A stretch of DNA of 64,000 bases from Candidatus Omnitrophota bacterium (GTDB lineage: Bacteria > Omnitrophota > Gorgyraeia > Duberdicusellales > 4484-171), in contig PMCS01000029.1 in NCBI GenBank assembly GCA_003154195.1, forward strand, positions 304,960-368,959, read 5' to 3'. This document shows positions 12,605 to 31,873 of this stretch, piece after piece. The position numbers and the translations under genes are program-made. The notes below the pieces were generated by a model. It searched no databases. It had not been told where the DNA came from and saw only the letters and a program-made list of their open reading frames with translations. Numbering within the stretch: the first letter of the stretch is position 1; each line of letters begins with the position of its first letter.

Positions 12605-12790
12605 AAACCTAAAATTTACCACGAAGGCACAAAGACACAAAGAAGATTAAGAATTATATTTTTCTTTTTTGTTGTTCTTGGTGACTCCGTCCCCTTCGGG
12701 GAGGCTTCGCTTCGCTGCGCACTGTCTTGGTGACAAAGTTTTCGGCTCTATTTTTTAGTGACTTAGTGGTGGAATCTTTACGGTTTGAAA
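12605..12790. repeat. MITE-like intergenic element with CACGAAG-type terminal inverted repeats and an internal UUCG-tetraloop hairpin core
   Basis: Left arm aaaatttaccacgaaggcacaaagacacaaagaag. Core gtccccttcggggaggcttcgcttcgctgcgcactg. Right arm cttagtggtggaatctttacgg is the reverse complement of the left arm. The element is homologous to sequences at 18725-18925 and 19596-19745. Confidence 0.7.
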
Positions 12791-12792
12791 AT

Positions 12793-13752
12793 ATGCTTGA
12801 AGAATTTTGCAAACAATTAAAAGAGAAACGCGAAGAATCAGGCTACAGCATCGAAGATGTCGTGGAAAAAACAAAACTGTATCCGGTGGCCATTCGCGAT
12901 ATCGAAGATGGCAATCTGGAAAATATAAGCCCGATTTATTTAAAGGGATTTATAAAGATTTACGCCTCTTTTCTGGGTATCGACGCAACTCAGGCCTTAA
13001 AAGATGTATCTTCGGTCAAACCCAAGCCCAAGCCTTCTTTTTTTAAGAAATTAAAAAACGATAATTTACCGAAGAAAGATACCGTAGCGCCGCCTGTTTC
13101 GGAGAAAAAAAATGCAATTGGGGAATCCGTGGTTATCGAAAAGCCGGTTGCGCCGCAAAAAAACCAGGCTGATTTTCCGGCCGTAGAGACAAAAAAATTA
13201 ACGGTTCTTTTAATCCTGGCAGTTATTTTAATGATCGGCGCGGTTTCCTTCAGCCGGTTTATCATCAAAGCAAAAGACAGCCGCCGCCGCAAACAAATCG
13301 TCGCGGAGCAGGCCGCCGGGGATGAACCGGGAGCGTTAAAGAAGGTAACGGCTAAAGAAGCGAAAAAGAACGCGCGGGATAAAATAAAGAAACCTTTGCC
13401 GAAAAACGGCGCGCTGAAAAGACATAAAAAGGAAATAAAAAACGAAGTGATGTCGCCCCGGATAAATTTAGGAAAAGATTTTTCCCAAACCGCTGAAATG
13501 ACGGTTTCCCTGACCGCTAAAAAAAATTGTTTTATTAAAGTAAAAAGCGACGGCAAACTTCTTTTTGAAGGAATCTTAAAAAAGGGAGTCGTGGAAAGCT
13601 GGCGCGGCCATAAGGTAATTGATTTGAAGACCAGCGACGGTTCGGCTTTATATATCGAATTGAACGGCCGGCCGCTTCCCGTTTTAACCGCAATGCACAA
13701 ACCCATTAAAAGCCTCAAAATCACTCCTGCCGGGATTTCTGTGGACAAATGA
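12793..13752 (+). CDS. rodZ: Cytoskeleton protein RodZ-like (HTH_XRE + TM + DUF4115)
   Basis: N-terminal HTH (SGYSIEDVVEKTKLYPVAIRDIEDGNLENISPIYLKGFIKIYASFLGID), a single TM helix, and a C-terminal DUF4115-like beta domain. Confidence 0.7.
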   Translation: MLEEFCKQLKEKREESGYSIEDVVEKTKLYPVAIRDIEDGNLENISPIYLKGFIKIYASFLGIDATQALKDVSSVKPKPKPSFFKKLKNDNLPKKDTVAPPVSEKKNAIGESVVIEKPVAPQKNQADFPAVETKKLTVLLILAVILMIGAVSFSRFIIKAKDSRRRKQIVAEQAAGDEPGALKKVTAKEAKKNARDKIKKPLPKNGALKRHKKEIKNEVMSPRINLGKDFSQTAEMTVSLTAKKNCFIKVKSDGKLLFEGILKKGVVESWRGHKVIDLKTSDGSALYIELNGRPLPVLTAMHKPIKSLKITPAGISVDK

Positions 13753-13814
13753 TTATTTTTACGAAGTAAAAATAATCATCATTCCAAAAAATGCGTTTGA
13801 AAACGCATTTTTTG
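13751..13814. terminator. Two consecutive perfect hairpins right after the rodZ stop codon
   Basis: GATTATTTTTAC-GAA-GTAAAAATAATC at 13751-13777 and AAAAATGCGTTT-GA-AAACGCATTTTTT at 13785-13814. The second is flanked by A-runs and T-runs, giving it a bidirectional character. Confidence 0.6.
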
Positions 13815-13899
13815 GGTAAAGAGACGGAACACCCACACCGGCGAATTAGCCGTACAAAAAAATGATTGACAAATAAGACCGTAGGAGTAAAGTAAGGTT

Positions 13900-14047
13900 A
13901 CAATTTGGCGTGGTGCAGTTTGAAGGAGTAAATCCGCCACGTTCCGCCAAGAGCGGACCAGCCTGTAAAAAACATCAAGGAAGCTGGAAAACAACAAAAA
14001 CCTTCGTTTGATTGTGCACGGTACAATTAGGCGAAGGTTTTTTTATT
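13900..14047 (+). ncRNA. Putative small RNA ending in a strong intrinsic terminator
   Basis: Promoter-like TTGACA at 13866 with TAAAGT 16 nt downstream, and TACAAT at 13899. No ORF is present. Internal hairpins are CCGC-CAAGA-GCGG and CCAGC...GCTGG. The terminator is AACCTTCG...CGAAGGTT followed by TTTTTTT at 13999-14047. Confidence 0.35.
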
Positions 14048-14070
14048 TTCTTTGCAATTATTTGGGTTTA

Positions 14071-14194
14071 TTCTTTGCAGAGAAAATGACCCGCCGACGA
14101 ATTGTGGCGGGTATATATGCCCGCAGTTGTATAGGCTTATTCCTTGCAGGTAAAATTACCCGTCAAAGGGTTGCGGCGGGTTATTTAGAGGTGA
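14071..14194 (+). repeat. Two tandem ~55-nt direct repeats, each with a GC hairpin and possible alternative pairing
   Basis: TTCTTTGCAGAGAAAATGACCCGCC-GACGAATTGT-GGCGGGT is duplicated as TTCCTTGCAGGTAAAATTACCCGTC...GCGGCGGGT. GGCGGG can pair either with the upstream ACCCGCC or with the downstream GCCCGC, which gives the region an attenuator-like look. Confidence 0.5.
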
Positions 14195-14276
14195 GGACGA
14201 ACAAATAGGTTTATAGGGAAAAATTGGAAGTCACAGATTGCGACTTCCAATTAAAATAAAGACAGGAGAATGATAT

Positions 14277-15350
14277 ATGAAACTTGAGTTAAGGCATGAC
14301 GGGAATTATATAAAATGGTTGGCGGCTATCAAGCTCAAAATTCGACAAGTACAGCTTAAGGCGGCGGTAAAAGTAAATACCGAACTTTTAACTTTTTATT
14401 GGGAACTCGGGGTGGATATTGTACAAAAACAAGCTGAAGCAAAATGGGGCGATGGTTTAATCGGGCAATTAAGCAAGGATCTATCTGCTGAATTTCCCGA
14501 TATAAAAGGTTTCTCTCGAACAAACCTCTTATATATCCGTCAATGGTATATGTTTTATTTCGAAAATTTTAAGAAAATCCCACAGGCTGTGGGACAAATG
14601 AGTAATGCATTTGTTAAAGAAATTTTTCAGGTTCCCTGGGGGCATAATAGAGAAATTGTCGCCAAATGTAAAACATTAGAAGAAGCTGTTTTTTATGTTC
14701 GTAATACAATCAAACACAATTGGAGCCGCGCGGTATTAGTGCATCAGATAGAATGGGGGCTTTTCCGCAGAGAGGGAAAAGCTGTCAATAATTTTGCGTT
14801 GACGTTGCCGAAGCCTCATTCGGATTTAGCTATGCAAACTCTCAATGACCCGTATATTTTTGACTTCTTGGCTATGACAAAAGATTATGACGAGAGAGAA
14901 CTGGAAAAGGCTTTGACTGGGCATATAACAACATTCTTATTGGAATTGGGTACCGGTTTTGCTTATGTGGGCCGGCAAATCCCGCTGCATGTTGGTGAAA
15001 GTGAATTTTTTATAGATTTGCTTTTTTATCATTTAAAGCTCCGTTGTTATGTGGTGATAGAGTTGAAAACGGTAGCGTTTCAGCCGGAGTTTGCCGGCAA
15101 ATTGAATTTCTACGTAACGGCCGTGGACCGTCGGTTGCGGAATGAATTAGACCGGCAAACGATTGGTATCTTCATATGTAAAACAAAAGATAAAGTCGTA
15201 GCCGAATACTCTTTAAGCGATATCAAAAAGCCCCTCGGCATTTCTGAATACCGCTTAACACAATCTCTGCCGAAGAAGTTTAAGTCAAGCTTGCCTTCGA
15301 TTCAGGAGATTAAGGCAGGGTTGAGTGGAGATGGAAACAAGGAAAAATGA
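14277..15350 (+). CDS. DUF1016 / YhcG-like PD-(D/E)xK nuclease family protein
   Basis: A C-terminal PDDEXK core (FIDLLFYHLKLRCYVVIELK) and an N-terminal YhcG-like helical domain. RBS AGGAG lies 8 nt before the ATG, which is preceded by a 9-bp hairpin at 14229-14252. Confidence 0.75.
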   Translation: MKLELRHDGNYIKWLAAIKLKIRQVQLKAAVKVNTELLTFYWELGVDIVQKQAEAKWGDGLIGQLSKDLSAEFPDIKGFSRTNLLYIRQWYMFYFENFKKIPQAVGQMSNAFVKEIFQVPWGHNREIVAKCKTLEEAVFYVRNTIKHNWSRAVLVHQIEWGLFRREGKAVNNFALTLPKPHSDLAMQTLNDPYIFDFLAMTKDYDERELEKALTGHITTFLLELGTGFAYVGRQIPLHVGESEFFIDLLFYHLKLRCYVVIELKTVAFQPEFAGKLNFYVTAVDRRLRNELDRQTIGIFICKTKDKVVAEYSLSDIKKPLGISEYRLTQSLPKKFKSSLPSIQEIKAGLSGDGNKEK

Positions 15351-15593
15351 ACATATTGAAAAGGCGTTAATTATGGCGAATTCGCCATATTAAAAAATGA
15401 AGCTACTGACAAAACATAAAGGATTGAGGCGGTTGGAATAAAGCTATTTAAAACTCCAACAACTTGTTGGAGAAATTAACTGGAAAAATATCTGCCCATT
15501 ATGCAAGGAGCTGATAGACCCATTGGAATGGTTTTTTATGAACAGTTTTGAGTTTGTTGAGGTGAGCTTGAAGCAGTCGTTAGGGTTTACCAG

Positions 15594-15632
15594 AAAAAAA
15601 TTTTAACAACGAATATCGCAAATCGCGCGAAT
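15594..15632. repeat. ~37-nt motif TTTTAACAACGAATNTCGCAAATNGCNCNAAT, second copy (first copy at 374-410 upstream of the DUF91 nuclease)
   Basis: aaaaaaattttaacaacgaatatcgcaaatcgcgcgaatg here matches gaaagattttaacaacgaattacgcaaattgcacaaatt at 374-410. Confidence 0.55.
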
Positions 15633-15668
15633 GTTTCTTTCGATGGGATGGAGCAGGAAGGCGGGGAA

Positions 15669-15914
15669 TTAAGTGAGCTGTCCCCCGAATCCCCCGATTG
15701 TTTCCTCTTCGCGCAGCCAATAAGAAAACCCCGCCGGTTTTTTGTTTACCCGGAGTACGTCGATTTTCGTATGAGGGATATTGAGCGATTCTATTGCATC
15801 CTTGAGGGAAGGGGTACCTTTAACCTGACAGGATAATCCTTTTGCGCAACGGTTCTTTGGTAAAAATATCTTAAGATTGCCGTGGAAACGAAATTTTACC
15901 GTAATTTCGTCCAT
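15669..15914 (-). CDS. Mut7-C ubiquitin-like (MoaD/ThiS-fold) domain protein, stand-alone
   Basis: Matches the Mut7-C_ubiquitin pattern FRF.G.L..FLP.........S.KD.IE.L.IPHT.ID...VN.K...FSY.L. No RNase (DUF82) domain is attached. Confidence 0.6.
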   Translation of the reverse strand: MDEITVKFRFHGNLKIFLPKNRCAKGLSCQVKGTPSLKDAIESLNIPHTKIDVLRVNKKPAGFSYWLREEETIGGFGGQLT

Positions 15915-17149
15915 CGTAATTTTGCTGCCCCCATGCCGGCTTCATGGTTAATTCCCGGGTCGCTGACACGGCCCATGAATAAAATCGTATTCGTAGTGTT
16001 ATCTTTAATCACAAAAATAAAAGGGTGGTCGGCTTGAAAAAACACCGATTCCGAATCCGTGTGCATTAACGCTTCTCCTGTGGCTGCGGCAGCTTCGGTA
16101 CCTTCCTCGTTAACTTCCACAAAAGCCTTGTGAAAAATATCACCGATATATAGAACGCCTTTCTCCACATTAGCCATACCGCTGAAATCAGCCCTTGTAT
16201 TGCTGAAAGTTTCTTTCATGCCCAAGGATACCAGGGATTTTTTTAAGGGAATTTCTGGGGCAGTTTTGAATTTAGGCAGGTAAACTATTACTTTTCGGGA
16301 ATCAGGCAAAGTGATTAAATCATTCAACTTGCCGGAATCTAAAGCATTTTCCACCGCATTAATGCCGTTTTTTTCTTTGGGTAAAATCACCACCATCGAT
16401 AATTTTTCGCCCCGGTAAGGCAGGGCCAATATCTGGACGTCATTGGTTTCTTTGTAGGCGTACTCTCTGTTTTGGGTCATCATTGTTGCGTTTATGGGAT
16501 TATCCGGGGTCAAGTAAAAAGGCATGTCTTTGGTATCTTCTTTTTTGAATTCCGCGGCCCACTTGCCTTTGAAATAAATAGCGTTGGTTAAAACCAGGTG
16601 GGCTTGGTCATTCAGAGATCCCCCCGGCAGTAAATCTTTGATGCGTCGTTTAGTTTTTTCTTCTACCCAGGAGTTGATGCGTATCCTTACTTGTTCATAG
16701 TCATGTTTAAAATCTACCTTTTCCAGGGCATTGGCGTAGTTAATTTTAACCAACTCGAGATATTGGTGGTAAAAATCAAACGACTGTTCCGCCCAAAGCG
16801 AGTTGGCGATATTCAACTCGATATCGCCGAAAGCGGCAGCTTGATTGAGCGTCTCGTTTAAGGCTTTAAAGCCGGGGTGGATATTCTGGCCGCAAGCGTA
16901 GTGCATTACTCCGGCGATTTCCTCCGCCGTGGTAGTTTTTGCTCCGGCATAAGCCATGGCCATGCAGCCGGAGATACTGTAGGGAGAAAAGAAGATATTG
17001 CCGGGTTCACTCCGGGCTTGGTTATATAAATCCAAGGCAAAAGCGTTGATGGCTTGGCCGGCGTCTTTAGCCGTCGCGCTTTGCGCCGGAGCTGAAGGGC
17101 AAAATAAAAGAAACATTGCGGCTAATGCGCCCAAGGTTTTATTTTTCAT
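15896..17149 (-). CDS. Serpin (serine protease inhibitor) with N-terminal signal peptide
   Basis: Signal peptide MKNKTLGALAAMFLLFCPSAPAQSA. Serpin hinge and reactive-centre-loop region (FHKAFVEVNEEGTEAAAATG...FFQADHPFIFVIKDNTTNTILFMGRVSDP). Confidence 0.85.
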   Translation of the reverse strand: MKNKTLGALAAMFLLFCPSAPAQSATAKDAGQAINAFALDLYNQARSEPGNIFFSPYSISGCMAMAYAGAKTTTAEEIAGVMHYACGQNIHPGFKALNETLNQAAAFGDIELNIANSLWAEQSFDFYHQYLELVKINYANALEKVDFKHDYEQVRIRINSWVEEKTKRRIKDLLPGGSLNDQAHLVLTNAIYFKGKWAAEFKKEDTKDMPFYLTPDNPINATMMTQNREYAYKETNDVQILALPYRGEKLSMVVILPKEKNGINAVENALDSGKLNDLITLPDSRKVIVYLPKFKTAPEIPLKKSLVSLGMKETFSNTRADFSGMANVEKGVLYIGDIFHKAFVEVNEEGTEAAAATGEALMHTDSESVFFQADHPFIFVIKDNTTNTILFMGRVSDPGINHEAGMGAAKLRWTKLR

Positions 17150-17395
17150 AGAGTTACCCCTTTTATCATTGCAGCATGTGAAGGATACCGTTTCCCAGAA
17201 AAGATTATTATCACACTTTTTTTTGGGCAGACAATAATTTTCTTTGCCCCTGATTATTTCGCGGCAAGCCGCGAAAGAATCAGAATTAAAAATTTTTAGA
17301 AGCCGATTGGCGGCATTTTGGGTTAAAATAACCTAAAAACAAGCGTATTGGTATGCTATAATATTAACCGGAAATTAGAAAATTATCTTATCTGA

Positions 17396-17422
17396 GATCC
17401 CGCAGCCTGTGGCTTCGGGATC
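17396..17422 (+). promoter_or_regulatory. 7-bp perfect hairpin in the rimO 5' leader
   Basis: GATCCCG-cagcctgtggctt-CGGGATC. An extended -10 (TGCTATAAT) lies at 17354-17362. Confidence 0.3.
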
Positions 17423-17462
17423 AAGGAAAATATGCCTGAAAGGCAGATTTTTCTTGAATAAT

Positions 17463-18710
17463 ATGCCCCAAAAAACCTTCTCTTTTATTTCCTTAGGTTG
17501 TTTCCGCAACACTTACGATTCGCAGGCTATTGCCCAAAGATTCAGCGACAGCGGGTATCGCTTTGTCGGCGAAGGTGAGCCTTGTGATACGCTGGTCGTC
17601 AATACCTGCGGGTTTATTACTGACGCCAAAAAAGAGTCATTGGGAGTTATTGAAGAAGCAATCGGATTGAAGAAAAAAAGAAAAGTAAAACAGATCATTG
17701 TGGTTGGCTGTCTGGTCGAGCGGTATCGTAAAGATTTAGAAAAAAGTTTTCCTCAAGTGGATGAGTGGCGGGGGGTGGAAGAGTTTAACCGGAAATTTAA
17801 GCCGGGAAAAAATGTTTTCTTACCTAAGCACATCGGTTTTTTAAAAGTTTGCGAAGGTTGTTTTAACCATTGCAGTTACTGCGCCATCCCTCTCATCAAA
17901 GGAAAATTCCGCAGCCGGCCGCTAAAGGAATTAATAAAAGAGGCTCGATTTATGGAAAGAAGCGGTGTTCGGGAATTAAATATTATTGGCCAGGATATCA
18001 CCGGCTGGGGAAGAGATTTAGGCGCAAAACAAGATTTAACGCTTTTGGTGAGAGGTATTTTAAAAAACACGAAAAATATACCATGGATAAGAATGATTTA
18101 CACCCACCCGAAACATTTTTCTCATTCTCTCATCGATTTAATCGCCGGAGAACCGCGAATCTGTAAATATATTGATTTGCCTATCCAGCATATCAACGAC
18201 CGGATCCTGAAATTAATGAATCGGGGTGTAACAAAAAAAGAAATAAAAACTCTTATCGAAACGATAAGAAAGAGAATTCCCGGCTGCCACATCAGGACTT
18301 CTTTGATCGTCGGTTTTCCTTCGGAGACGCAAAAGGAATTCAACGAACTTGTTGATTTTGTTGAAGAAATAAAGTTTGAAAAATTAGGCGTATTTACCTA
18401 TTCGCGGGAAGAGGGTACGCCGGCTTTTCGTTATAGCGGCCAAATCCATCAGAAGACAAAAGAGGCGCGACGCGACGCGATGATGACTATACAAAAAGAA
18501 ATATCGCTGAAAGTAAACGAAAAATTTATCGATAAAGAAACCACGGTTTTGGTTGACGAAAAAAATAAAGACTCCTGTATTGGCCGCACTCAATATGACG
18601 CTTATGAAGTGGACGGAGCGGTTATCCTGCCCGCAGGAGGATTTATCCCCGGAAAATTTTATAAAGTTACCGTAACCGACGCGCTGGAATATGATTTGGT
18701 TGCGGGCTAA
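17463..18710 (+). CDS. rimO: Ribosomal protein S12 methylthiotransferase RimO (MiaB-family radical SAM + TRAM)
   Basis: MTTase N-terminal domain (FISLGCFRNTYDSQ), radical SAM motif CEGCFNHCSYC and a C-terminal TRAM domain. The ORF extends upstream to 17409. Confidence 0.8.
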   Translation: MPQKTFSFISLGCFRNTYDSQAIAQRFSDSGYRFVGEGEPCDTLVVNTCGFITDAKKESLGVIEEAIGLKKKRKVKQIIVVGCLVERYRKDLEKSFPQVDEWRGVEEFNRKFKPGKNVFLPKHIGFLKVCEGCFNHCSYCAIPLIKGKFRSRPLKELIKEARFMERSGVRELNIIGQDITGWGRDLGAKQDLTLLVRGILKNTKNIPWIRMIYTHPKHFSHSLIDLIAGEPRICKYIDLPIQHINDRILKLMNRGVTKKEIKTLIETIRKRIPGCHIRTSLIVGFPSETQKEFNELVDFVEEIKFEKLGVFTYSREEGTPAFRYSGQIHQKTKEARRDAMMTIQKEISLKVNEKFIDKETTVLVDEKNKDSCIGRTQYDAYEVDGAVILPAGGFIPGKFYKVTVTDALEYDLVAG

Positions 18711-18724
18711 ACCCCGGCTTTAAA

Positions 18725-18925
18725 ACTTTTTGCCACAAAGCGCAGTGCGGAGTGAAGCGTAGCCTCCCCGAAGGGGACAGAGCTCACGGAGTAAGAAGAA
18801 ATATTTGAAATCAATAGTTTTTTGTTCCCTTCGGGGAGGCTACGCTTTATTACGCACTGTGATTAGCTATTGAATTTTATCTCTGTGTTCTCTGTGTCCT
18901 CCGTGGTGGAATATCTTTCTGTTCG
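18725..18925. repeat. Two head-to-head copies of the MITE-like element (UUCG/GAAG hairpin core + CACAGAG arm)
   Basis: gcgcagtgcggagtgaagcgtagcctccccgaaggggac is the reverse-complement homolog of the 12680-12720 core. gttcccttcggggaggctacgctttattacgcactgtg is the forward homolog. Together they form a ~140-bp palindrome, with arm ctctgtgttctctgtgtcctccgtggtggaatatcttt. Confidence 0.7.
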
Positions 18926-19026
18926 TATTTCCAAAAAACAGGGGAAGTCCTCCGTTAGTTTTCTCTTGTTTGCCTGCCGCGATAGCGGTAAAATAATTAT
19001 CCCCGCGTATACGCGGGGATAATTAT

Positions 19027-19593: not shown

Positions 19594-19595
19594 AT

Positions 19596-19745
19596 ACATT
19601 TTTACCACGAAGGCACAAAGAACACGAAGACAAGATATGATTTTAAATCTTTTTATTTTTCTTAATGCTTCAGATGTTAAAAATCTTTATAGTTTTGGAT
19701 TTTTGATTTTCGTGGCTTAGTGCCTTGGTGGTAAAATCTTTATGG
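19596..19745. repeat. MITE-like element variant with terminal inverted repeats only (no UUCG core)
   Basis: Left arm ttttaccacgaaggcacaaagaacacgaag. The reverse complement of right arm cgtggcttagtgccttggtggtaaaatcttt is aaagattttaccaccaaggcactaagccacg. Confidence 0.65.
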
Positions 19746-19802
19746 TTTTGTTTTTATATTTTTCCGGGAATAGAAGAACTTTTAATCTAGGAGGTAAATT
19801 GA

Positions 19803-20478: not shown

Positions 20479-20967
20479 ATGGCTAAAATGAGACCTTTGC
20501 CGGTTAAAAAAAGCATTACTTTGGCGGAAATGCTGCTTGCTACGGCGATAACCGCTTTTGCGATTTGTAATATATTGGTAATGTACACAGCTTGTTTTGA
20601 CCTGATTGGAACAGCGAAAAATATGAATATTGCAACCAACGCCGCGCAGGGGTTGATCGAAGGAATGCGCAATAGCACCTTTCAGCAAATTGACGATACT
20701 TATGGCGTTAATCCTACTGCCGATGCCGACATATCCTATAGTAATTTTGTTGTTAACGCGATACCATCGAGCATGGGTGTGGTGTATATAAACGACACTA
20801 ATCCGGAATTGCTGCAAGCTACGGTAAGTGTCTGCTGGCGTCAAAAAAACAGAGTTATCGGAGAAGATAAAAATTTAAACGGCGCCCTCGACGCGGGAGA
20901 GGACGCTAACGGCAACAAGATAATCGATTCGCCTGTTGAATTGACTACCTTAATCGTTAATCGGTGA
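20479..20967 (+). CDS. Type IV pilin-like / pseudopilin protein with atypical prepilin N-terminus
   Basis: A hydrophobic N-terminal helix (KKSITLAEMLLATAITAFAICNILV) that resembles the methylation motif but lacks the conserved Gly. Confidence 0.5.
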   Translation: MAKMRPLPVKKSITLAEMLLATAITAFAICNILVMYTACFDLIGTAKNMNIATNAAQGLIEGMRNSTFQQIDDTYGVNPTADADISYSNFVVNAIPSSMGVVYINDTNPELLQATVSVCWRQKNRVIGEDKNLNGALDAGEDANGNKIIDSPVELTTLIVNR

Positions 20968-20971
20968 GAAT

Positions 20972-21565
20972 ATGAATAATTTTAGCCATGAATTGCAAGG
21001 TCGCTTTCTACTGGAGTGCGGCCGCCCGAAAGAGGAAGCCATAATAGCAGGGCGGCGGGGTTTCACTCTGGTGGAGATTATCGTTGCTTTTTCCCTTATG
21101 GTTGTTATTTCGGGGATGCTGGTTATTGTTTTTTCTGCAGGGCAGCGGGCGTGGTTTACTGCCGATGCCACAGTTGCGTTGCGCGACCAGACGATGCGTT
21201 TAGCCAGGACGATGGGAAAAGAATTGAGTCTGACCCGGCCGTCAAAAACCAATTTAGACCTCGGCGCGTCAAACAGCGTCTTGACCTTTCCTTTGCCACA
21301 GGATAATAACGGAGACGGCACTATTTTGGATGCTTCCGGTAATGTAGAATGGTCGGCAACGATCACCTATTCCCTGAATGGTTCGGGCCAGGTTGTGCGT
21401 AATTTTGCGGGAGCGGATTCAATAATCGGGATTAACATCTCGTTTTTACGCTTTACCCGTATCCAGGATACACTTATGCAAATCGATATTACCGCCCAGA
21501 AAACGGTTCGCCAGGGACAGCTTATCCAGGATACGGAACAGGTCAAAGTAAAAATGAGGAATTGA
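20972..21565 (+). CDS. Prepilin-type N-terminal cleavage/methylation domain protein (minor pilin)
   Basis: RRGFTLVEIIVAFSLMVVISGMLVIV is a classic GFTLxE motif. Confidence 0.7.
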   Translation: MNNFSHELQGRFLLECGRPKEEAIIAGRRGFTLVEIIVAFSLMVVISGMLVIVFSAGQRAWFTADATVALRDQTMRLARTMGKELSLTRPSKTNLDLGASNSVLTFPLPQDNNGDGTILDASGNVEWSATITYSLNGSGQVVRNFAGADSIIGINISFLRFTRIQDTLMQIDITAQKTVRQGQLIQDTEQVKVKMRN

Positions 21566-31447: not shown

Positions 31448-31873
31448 GCCGGCAGGGTTTTTTCCCTTTCGCAAACGTTTAAATAAAACTTTAAACTGAG
31501 ATTATTTGCGGTTGCCTGTTACCGATTGCCTTGACTTTCAGCAAAAAATATGTTACATTTTAAGTGAAGAAAAAGGCCGTTCTTTACAATCAGGCGAATG
31601 TTTTATAAATACATAATACTCGATAAGAGCAAACTCCGGGTAACCGGAGGACGCAAAGCTACGGATCCTTTGCAAAATACCAAAGAACCTAAAAACTAAA
31701 TAACAAAAATGCTTTAATCTTATATCTTAGTTTTTGGTTCTTTAATCGCCCAGGTTTTAAGTTTTTTGGTATATGCCGTAAGGATTGCCGGGTTGCCGAA
31801 AGTGTTTTTAGCTTAACGGTGAGAATCTATGCGCCGGACTGCTTTTAGTTGAGTGGCCCGGCATTTTTTATTT

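Follow-up and report, generated by a model that had tools for sequence, protein, structure and literature searches.

Layout of the rodZ–rimO junction

We analyzed a 64,000-nucleotide (nt) stretch of the genome of a Candidatus Omnitrophota bacterium (contig PMCS01000029.1, assembly GCA_003154195.1), hereafter called the window, in which a segment of 3,656 nt (positions 13753–17408) separates the core genes rodZ and rimO. Based on open reading frames (ORFs) and Pfam matches, the segment holds four features, all at the places given in a preliminary description of this DNA: a structured non-coding stretch of 524 nt, a gene for a YhcG/DUF1016 nuclease (yhcG), an 81-amino-acid (aa) ORF for a ubiquitin-like beta-grasp domain of the Ub-Mut7C family (the Ub ORF), and a serpin gene. 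Both flanking genes are conserved core genes on the + strand. On the left, rodZ (12727–13752) was assigned by its Pfam domains HTH_25 and RodZ_C and by synteny. On the right, rimO (17409–18710) was assigned by synteny and by the NCBIfam equivalog TIGR01125, with 403.7 bits against a cut-off of 356.95. Translation of rimO probably starts at the ATG at 17463, because other assemblies annotate a product of 415 aa and its relatives align only from residues 13–27 onward.

Related loci were fetched through relatives of RimO, from a genome collection and then from a metagenome collection with an alignment of two sequences as the query, and all proteins of the window were compared with them by tblastn. 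Thirty-one Omnitrophota loci carry both rodZ and rimO, with a RimO 42–51% identical to that of the window; for locus L008, the gene identities were verified with Pfam. The nearest named relative of the window is a Candidatus Omnitrophica metagenome-assembled genome (MAG). In these loci, rodZ and rimO overlap or abut: the gap between the rodZ stop and the point where the RimO match begins ranges from −34 to 192 nt (median 18) in 31 of 31, compared with 3,656 nt here. The order ftsK/rodZ–rimO–pgsA–pgpA is kept as far as each locus extends, as is pnp where the contig reaches it. YhcG, the Ub ORF, and the serpin have no match in any of the 31 loci. Because all these relatives have a short gap and none of the segment genes, we read 13753–17408 as a lineage-specific insertion of accessory DNA that splits a conserved junction whose genes are probably co-transcribed. 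The same site is thus empty in every relative compared, which bears out the earlier view that the segment is accessory and its gene order not that of the core genome.

The insertion is not an artefact of assembly. The window matches contig PMEA01000109.1 (GCA_003154645.1), near-identical contigs occur in ENA, JGI, and Logan assemblies, and seven independent assemblies are 99.95–100% identical over both junctions of the segment. Since the junctions are identical across the NCBI, ENA, JGI, and Logan assemblies, mis-assembly was ruled out. The seven assemblies differ from the window by four single-nucleotide polymorphisms (SNPs) in total, every one within the segment, at 14048, 14216, 15830, and 16375. 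The first two fall in the 524-nt region and are the sole differences from two 21-kb assemblies of the locus, in which the ~17 kb of flanking core genes carry no SNP. The SNP at 15830 is a non-synonymous change in the Ub ORF (C29S). The SNP at 16375, read by hand, changes the first position of serpin codon 259 (GAA to CAA, E259Q). With at least 99.95% identity throughout, the seven assemblies are too alike for an analysis of selection.

The YhcG nuclease

The yhcG gene (14277–15350, + strand) encodes a PD-(D/E)xK nuclease of 357 aa, as assigned from Pfam and PADLOC matches, an invariant motif, and plasmid and phage homologues. In Pfam, YhcG_C is matched with an E value of 4.5e-62 (209 bits vs. 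32.5) and DUF1016_N with 3.4e-38 (131.3 bits vs. 32.8). The catalytic residues E223, D247, and E262-L-K264 are intact; across 119 homologues, their conservation is 98% or higher. This E223/D247/E262-x-K264 arrangement agrees with the motif E-D-E(I/L/V)K published for the family (PMC1189080). In PADLOC, residues 1–350 align with positions 1–351 of the 355 in profile PDC-S02 (E 3e-149), which is one of 145 untested phage defense candidates proposed by guilt-by-embedding (bioRxiv 10.1101/2024.01.29.577857). No solved structure was detectable for YhcG by sequence. A well-spaced Shine-Dalgarno sequence, AGGAG, can be read at ~14265.

Homologues 60–80% identical to this YhcG occur in MAGs named Elusimicrobia, Nitrospirae, Firestonebacteria, Pseudomonadota, Desulfobacteraceae, Planctomycetes, and Omnitrophota. 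This identity across phyla is well above that of the flanking core proteins between Omnitrophota, where pnp, rimO, and pgsA products are at most ~57% identical and FtsK is 44–49% identical over its full length. The family is also present on 525 plasmid records and on the Wolbachia phage WO. At the DNA level, the only part of the segment that matches plasmids is the yhcG coding part. As judged from these homologues, yhcG appears to be a widely mobile single-gene nuclease.

Three loci with YhcG homologues were examined for their gene context. One homologue adjoins a DUF4062/HATPase_c_4 gene; a second lies within a methyltransferase and AlwI-type restriction cluster; and the third stands among a Fic gene, a transposase fragment, an N6/N4 methyltransferase, a Bro-N gene, and a ResIII-family gene. 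Two of the three contexts are therefore of the restriction-modification or defense type. No defense system lies beside the gene studied here, whose neighbors are rodZ, the serpin, and rimO. Compared with the YhcG/DUF1016 family (PF06250 and PF17761; COG4804; PDC-S02), which is patchily distributed and borne by plasmids and phages, this member shares both full-length domains, the E-D-ExK residues, and the stand-alone gene. It differs in lying outside a defense island, between housekeeping genes and a serpin, and in being preceded by a unique structured region of 524 nt. YhcG would cleave DNA in a metal-dependent manner, and its predicted role is that of a single-gene defense or selfish nuclease.

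The serpin

The serpin gene (15896–17149, − strand) encodes 417 aa and was identified by Pfam, by matches to serpins in the PDB, and by comparison with 112 homologues. The match to PF00079 covers profile positions 2–370 of 370 (E 6e-116), and PDB serpins match the query over residues ~31–398, with alignment ends at 394–402. The hinge, E348-EGTEAAAA, is identical to the consensus of inhibitory serpins, ExGTEAAAA at P17–P9 (PMC8233489). Since the hinge is canonical, we infer that the serpin is inhibitory. Counted from the hinge, the predicted P1–P1′ pair is T364–D365. The N-terminus, judged by eye, resembles a Sec signal peptide, with MKNK, a hydrophobic core, and a site A20-P-A22|Q23, and the gene has a well-spaced Shine-Dalgarno sequence, AAGGGG. 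Thus, the protein would be exported by its Sec signal peptide and would inhibit serine proteases outside the cytoplasm by suicide-substrate loop insertion.

More than 8000 database proteins match the serpin at E < 1e-30. The best match other than itself is 51% identical, and below it lies a plateau of 44–49% identity across many phyla. The earlier remark that bacterial serpins are uncommon applies to cultured genomes; it does not extend to metagenomes, from which these serpins come. In its full fold match, its ExGTEAAAA hinge, and its predicted N-terminal export signal, the protein resembles prokaryotic inhibitory serpins with signal peptides (the Group T/U and ‘hub’ serpins of Spence et al. 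2021, such as miropin, tengpin, and chloropin). In contrast to those serpins, its reactive loop is short and unusual, with Thr-Asp at the predicted P1–P1′, its closest relative is only 51% identical, and it carries a C-terminal tail.

This tail extends 19 aa past the conserved GRVxxP (residues 399–417; 15896–15955), compared with 1–7 aa in 109 of the 112 homologues. It is in precisely this part that the serpin overlaps the Ub ORF, which suggests that the native stop codon of the serpin was displaced by a rearrangement.

In three other loci that carry a serpin homologue, the serpin is a single gene (L098, 6001–7218; L100, 6001–7212; L094, 167–1396). The three contexts are purQ–serpin–purM and gpsA–serpin–pilZ, each in an Omnitrophica MAG, and a serpin followed by PPK2, which is the locus of the 51% homologue. 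Collectively, these contexts suggest that related serpins were inserted repeatedly and independently, as single genes, among unrelated housekeeping genes.

The orphan beta-grasp ORF

The Ub ORF (15669–15914, − strand; 81 aa) matches PF14451 at profile positions 3–70 of 81 (E 4.8e-16, 58.9 bits vs. a cut-off of 23). As read from the sequence, the serpin stop codon (15896–15898) and the ATG of the Ub ORF (15912–15914) place the two genes in an overlap of 19 nt, in agreement with the overlap reported before. The AlphaFold model built with the family alignment shows a complete beta-grasp with a predicted local distance difference test (pLDDT) score of 84.1, and it matches structures of MoaD, SAMP1, Urm1, and SUMO with template modeling (TM) scores up to 0.75. 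The ORF ends in ...GGFGGQLT, so the Gly-Gly expected of a ubiquitin-like modifier or sulfur carrier is not terminal, and the ORF list and Pfam show no E1 or JAB gene in the segment or its flanks.

In Ubl-Mut7-C proteins (TM_0779 and Rv0579 type), an N-terminal beta-grasp is followed by a Mut7-C RNase/TOPRIM-like domain and then by a zinc ribbon. The Ub ORF corresponds to the homologous N-terminal beta-grasp (PF14451), which is predicted to fold. In contrast, the whole Mut7-C and zinc-ribbon half is gone, the last strand is degenerate, and the ORF overlaps the serpin gene. The missing RNase half, already noticed in the preliminary description, was confirmed with a hidden Markov model (HMM) from full-length Ub-Mut7C homologues, which matches only the beta-grasp part: the ORF stops directly after it. 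A decayed Mut7-C RNase downstream was considered and rejected as unsupported. With 40 full-length homologues as queries, tblastn yielded nothing above noise. A 15-aa match that recurred at 15594–15550 resembles the start of the RNase domain; over the 350 nt downstream of the ORF, the RNase-domain HMM scored no better than in 62 of 200 shuffles.

A word-index search for relatives of the 81-aa ORF returned a single copy, 99% identical and from the same population. An exhaustive search of representatives gave 482 relatives at E ≤ 0.001, the best of which is only 47% identical. The ORF is thus found in this population only, and the conservation as a stand-alone gene on which the preliminary description had made its proposal depend was not seen. 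The 149 closest representatives all match Ub-Mut7C; a Mut7-C RNase domain is present in 66 and was not found in 83, and the short representatives may in part be fragments at contig ends.

These data bear on whether the ORF is a relic or a protein in its own right. A functional stand-alone beta-grasp, perhaps an RNA-binding regulator or a partner in a serpin operon, is a possibility that we regard as the less likely one. It would account for the intact ORF, in which eight of nine near-invariant positions are kept, for the confident model, and for the many short family representatives without the Mut7-C domain. The lack of a visible RNase remnant also fits, since any truncation must have been clean, and an RNA-binding role has been proposed for the beta-grasp of Ubl-Mut7-C proteins (Iyer et al. 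2006, PMC1779556). However, the ORF is confined to one population, the near-invariant Glu at position 50 is Lys, and the last strand reads TIGGFG where the family has xxVYP. Moreover, there is no well-spaced Shine-Dalgarno sequence, as the G-run ends 13 nt upstream of the ATG, and the single SNP seen in the ORF, C29S, is non-synonymous.

We therefore weakly favor the Ub ORF as a passenger, which is the most likely reading. Its probable source is a former Mut7-C RNase gene, of which only the N-terminal beta-grasp would have survived when a rearrangement removed the RNase half. The same rearrangement would have displaced the serpin stop codon, a displacement proposed as the reason for the unusual serpin tail. 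If the Ub ORF is translated at all, this may occur by re-initiation coupled to translation of the serpin.

The structured region upstream of yhcG

The gap between rodZ and yhcG measures 524 nt and folds with a minimum free energy (MFE) of −174.9 kcal/mol (z = −8.2; none of 100 shuffles was as good). Two hairpins directly follow the rodZ stop, as seen in inverted repeats I1/I3 and in the MFE structure: an AT-only stem (13753–13775, + strand) and a second hairpin (13784–13815, + strand) with an A-run, a GC stem, and a T-run in the layout of a bidirectional terminator. Both rodZ terminator hairpins lie within the 524 nt. They are followed by a sigma-70-like promoter match (13866–13893, + strand; TTGACA, 16 nt, TAAAGT; 10 of 12 positions), which rests on the consensus, while promoter-like sites in the region are as numerous as expected from shuffles. 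A candidate small RNA or attenuator of ~150 nt (13896–14047, + strand; fold z = −4.6) comes next, with three short hairpins and then an intrinsic terminator found by a terminator scan (stem of 20–22 bp at 13996–14042, + strand, with a T-run to 14047).

Downstream of this terminator, the tandem repeat D1 (14054–14112 and 14123–14181, + strand) aligns over 59 nt with a period of 69 nt and 75% identity. Each copy carries a hairpin of the form ACCCGyC...GGCGGGT, whose stem tolerates a C-to-U change by forming a G-U pair. Nowhere else in the window does this pattern occur, and the number of chance matches expected is 0. A 14-bp hairpin (14222–14252, + strand; inverted repeat I5) stands just 5′ of the yhcG Shine-Dalgarno sequence and overlaps a weak promoter-like site (14230–14257). 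The small ORFs within non-coding parts of the segment (14008–14208, + strand; 13779–13997, − strand; 15648–15836, + strand) have no Pfam match at E ≤ 1.

Calling the stretch a leader is an interpretation. Since it includes both a promoter-like site and a strong intrinsic terminator, a large part may form a transcription unit of its own. Accordingly, what stands of the structured leader of ~520 nt in the preliminary description is its length and its structure, with the correction that the rodZ terminator hairpins are part of it and do not precede it. Rfam was run at gathering thresholds over the whole window and at E ≤ 1 over 13600–17500, where only chance-level matches appeared. A known RNA family, suspected to be like the signal recognition particle RNA from GGUGC and GGAAGC, was rejected, as Rfam gave nothing in the 524-nt region. 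Neither the leader nor the tandem repeats nor the remaining spacers were seen to recur in the rest of the window or among 98 fetched loci. Two of the three yhcG homologues examined in context overlap the gene before them and lack any leader. Without relatives, and with these two homologues lacking a leader, the 524-nt element is not conserved across the YhcG family.

Nor is strong structure peculiar to this region, as became clear when 15 intergenic regions of the window were surveyed with mononucleotide shuffles. The rimO–pgsA spacer, which lies outside the segment (18711–19026; 316 nt), is more structured (MFE −134.7 kcal/mol, z = −10.4) and contains an inverted repeat with 42-nt arms (18738–18779 and 18823–18864) and a perfect 34-nt palindrome (17+17) abutting the pgsA start. 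The idea that heavy RNA structure sets the segment apart from the housekeeping genes is thus not upheld.

An inverted repeat of 21 nt and a tandem repeat of 41 nt likewise occur in the pgsA–pgpA spacer (19594–19802; 209 nt). Relatives have rimO, pgsA, and pgpA abutting or separated by no more than ~100 nt; hence, the row of this genome has gained several structured intergenic inserts.

Another view sees in the 524-nt region a regulatory RNA for the nuclease, either a riboswitch-like or attenuator leader or a repeat RNA that neutralizes YhcG in the manner of a type III toxin-antitoxin system. The fold score, the D1 stems maintained through the C-to-U change, the location of the only two SNPs against the 21-kb assemblies, and the succession of promoter-like site, structured RNA, strong terminator, two tandem hairpin repeats, hairpin, and ribosome-binding site before the gene are all consistent with it. 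Nevertheless, we consider such a regulator unlikely: the region belongs to no Rfam family, has no sequence relative in the fetched loci, is missing upstream of two of three YhcG homologues, and is matched in structure by other intergenic regions of this genome. ToxIN-like systems combine near-identical tandem RNA repeats, a terminator, and a ToxN, CptN, or TenpN endoribonuclease. In the ToxIN architecture, the terminator lies between the repeats and the toxin gene. Here, the repeats are two and only 75% identical, the terminator is upstream of them, and the downstream protein is a PD-(D/E)xK nuclease and none of these endoribonucleases.

The structured non-coding region upstream of yhcG is the only unexplained element of the locus, all other components belonging to known families. 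That it is an undescribed RNA element, with a small RNA (~13896–14047) and repeats (14054–14181) that control or neutralize the YhcG/PDC-S02 nuclease, seems to us quite improbable; if true, the yhcG locus would be an RNA-regulated unit of the toxin or defense type. Weaker still is the alternative in which translational coupling links the orphan beta-grasp ORF to the secreted serpin as its partner. In our reading, the region before yhcG would probably provide transcription termination, attenuation, and a small RNA.

Further signals lie on the other side of the segment. A terminator-like hairpin with a T-run (15454–15472, − strand), ~200 nt downstream of the Ub ORF stop, is the likely end of the serpin–Ub transcript. 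Between the serpin and rimO, a divergent control region (17150–17462) contains a promoter-like site for the serpin (17234–17207, − strand), a hairpin (17250–17283), and, ahead of rimO, an extended −10-like element, TGcTATAAT (~17354–17362).

Composition and signs of mobility

The GC content of the segment is 0.417, compared with 0.430 ± 0.022 for windows of equal size. Its dinucleotide signature distance falls in the upper 7% and its tetranucleotide distance in the upper 16% of other windows. All three measures lie inside the range of the other windows, in tails of 7–26%. Among single genes, only yhcG is an outlier, with a low GC content at third codon positions (0.405, 2nd percentile of 42 ORFs), while the serpin is typical. 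A deviation from the flanks, named earlier as a check on the acquired nature of the segment, was therefore found in the third codon positions of yhcG and not in the segment as a whole. It follows that the acquisition is old, or came from a similar genome, or is not datable.

Similarly, classical marks of mobility are scarce. There is no tRNA in the whole window, no integrase or transposase among the ORFs according to the ORF list and Pfam, and no flanking direct repeat or target-site duplication around the whole segment. A 26-nt direct repeat (D2) brackets the non-coding region and yhcG only. Its left copy (13840–13865, + strand) has the palindromic core GGCGAATTxGCC, and its right copy (15375–15400, + strand), 25 nt past the yhcG stop, lies inside a 14+14 palindrome (15367–15394; inverted repeat I13). 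The copies are 85% identical, with a rough chance estimate of ~0.01–0.05. An origin as part of longer duplicated ends was rejected, because the similarity stops at 26 nt.

The normal composition and the lack of mobility genes and target-site duplications would be expected if the arrangement were ancestral and the segment had been deleted in the relatives. This view is hardly credible, since the segment would have to have been lost from all 31 diverse loci, and each loss would have to have brought rodZ and rimO exactly end to end or into overlap. In addition, a plasmid-borne yhcG that is 60–80% identical across phyla is incompatible with vertical descent beside core genes of 42–57% identity. 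A cargo nearer to distant taxa than the core is to its relatives is thus seen for yhcG; for the serpin, the same comparison gives the plateau of 44–51% identity across phyla. We therefore retain the insertion of accessory DNA. In its presence here and absence from related genomes, its cargo of the mobile or defense type, and its new promoters and terminators at the junctions, the segment is like small genomic islets in conserved operons. In contrast to those, it comes without an integrase, a tRNA, att repeats, or a compositional signature.

A patchwork or a single module

The preliminary description took the nuclease, the beta-grasp protein, and the serpin for one horizontally acquired functional module, such as a cassette for defense or host interaction, insulated by RNA structure. 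In favor of this, the three genes lie together within one insertion, the Ub ORF overlaps the 3′ end of the serpin gene in a way that suggests co-transcription, and YhcG matches a defense candidate. However, neither partner gene is carried by any of the three loci with YhcG homologues or the three with serpin homologues. Moreover, yhcG lies on the opposite strand, convergent with the serpin–Ub pair and with terminator-like hairpins between them; PADLOC matched neither the serpin nor the Ub ORF; no conserved genome context was reported for Ubl-Mut7-C proteins (Iyer et al. 2006, PMC1779556); and equally strong structure stands in the rimO–pgsA spacer, outside the segment. We therefore hold a joint functional module to be very unlikely. 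Of the original proposal, the accessory nature of the DNA remains, supported by the cross-phylum and plasmid relationships of yhcG, whereas the unity of the module does not.

Our best explanation, which we regard as probable, is a patchwork: a lineage-specific insertion of unrelated accessory genes, with two cargo units and an orphan domain fragment, and not a new functional system. The segment would carry two convergent and functionally unrelated units, yhcG on one side and the serpin, with or without the Ub ORF, on the other. Several points weigh against this explanation. The relatives compared are all distant, with RimO at most 51% identical, and the composition of the segment is nearly indistinguishable from the rest of the window. 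Apart from the marginal 26-nt repeat around the yhcG part, nothing of an integrase, transposase, tRNA, or target-site duplication accompanies the insertion. As for the domain fragment, 83 of the 149 closest Ub representatives are also without a detectable Mut7-C domain (many of them maybe contig-end fragments), and an intact ORF with most conserved residues kept fits a functional stand-alone protein equally well.

Other features of the window

Outside the segment, Rfam identified a cyclic di-GMP-I riboswitch aptamer (RF01051) at 31618–31800 on the + strand, with 56.4 bits against a gathering score of 35. It lies within an intergenic region of 702 nt and has an unusually long insertion of 109 nt in one stem-loop. 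Just past pgpA, at 20479–21565 and downstream, small ORFs with prepilin-like hydrophobic segments at their N-termini are followed by a DUF4900 protein (annotated in locus L002); the cluster looks like a pseudopilin or type IV pilus-like one.

Significance

The locus shows that a very tightly packed and conserved housekeeping row of Omnitrophota can be divided by accessory DNA, and rimO seems to have acquired its own promoter here. For the YhcG/PDC-S02 family, whose function is a candidate one, the gene adds one further data point for a promiscuously transferred single-gene nuclease. For the serpins, it adds to a small pattern, made up of two Omnitrophota loci and one other, in which serpins are dropped singly into housekeeping contexts. 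Collectively, these observations leave current understanding unchanged, and their value lies mainly in annotation and in a candidate locus for work on PDC-S02 or environmental serpins.

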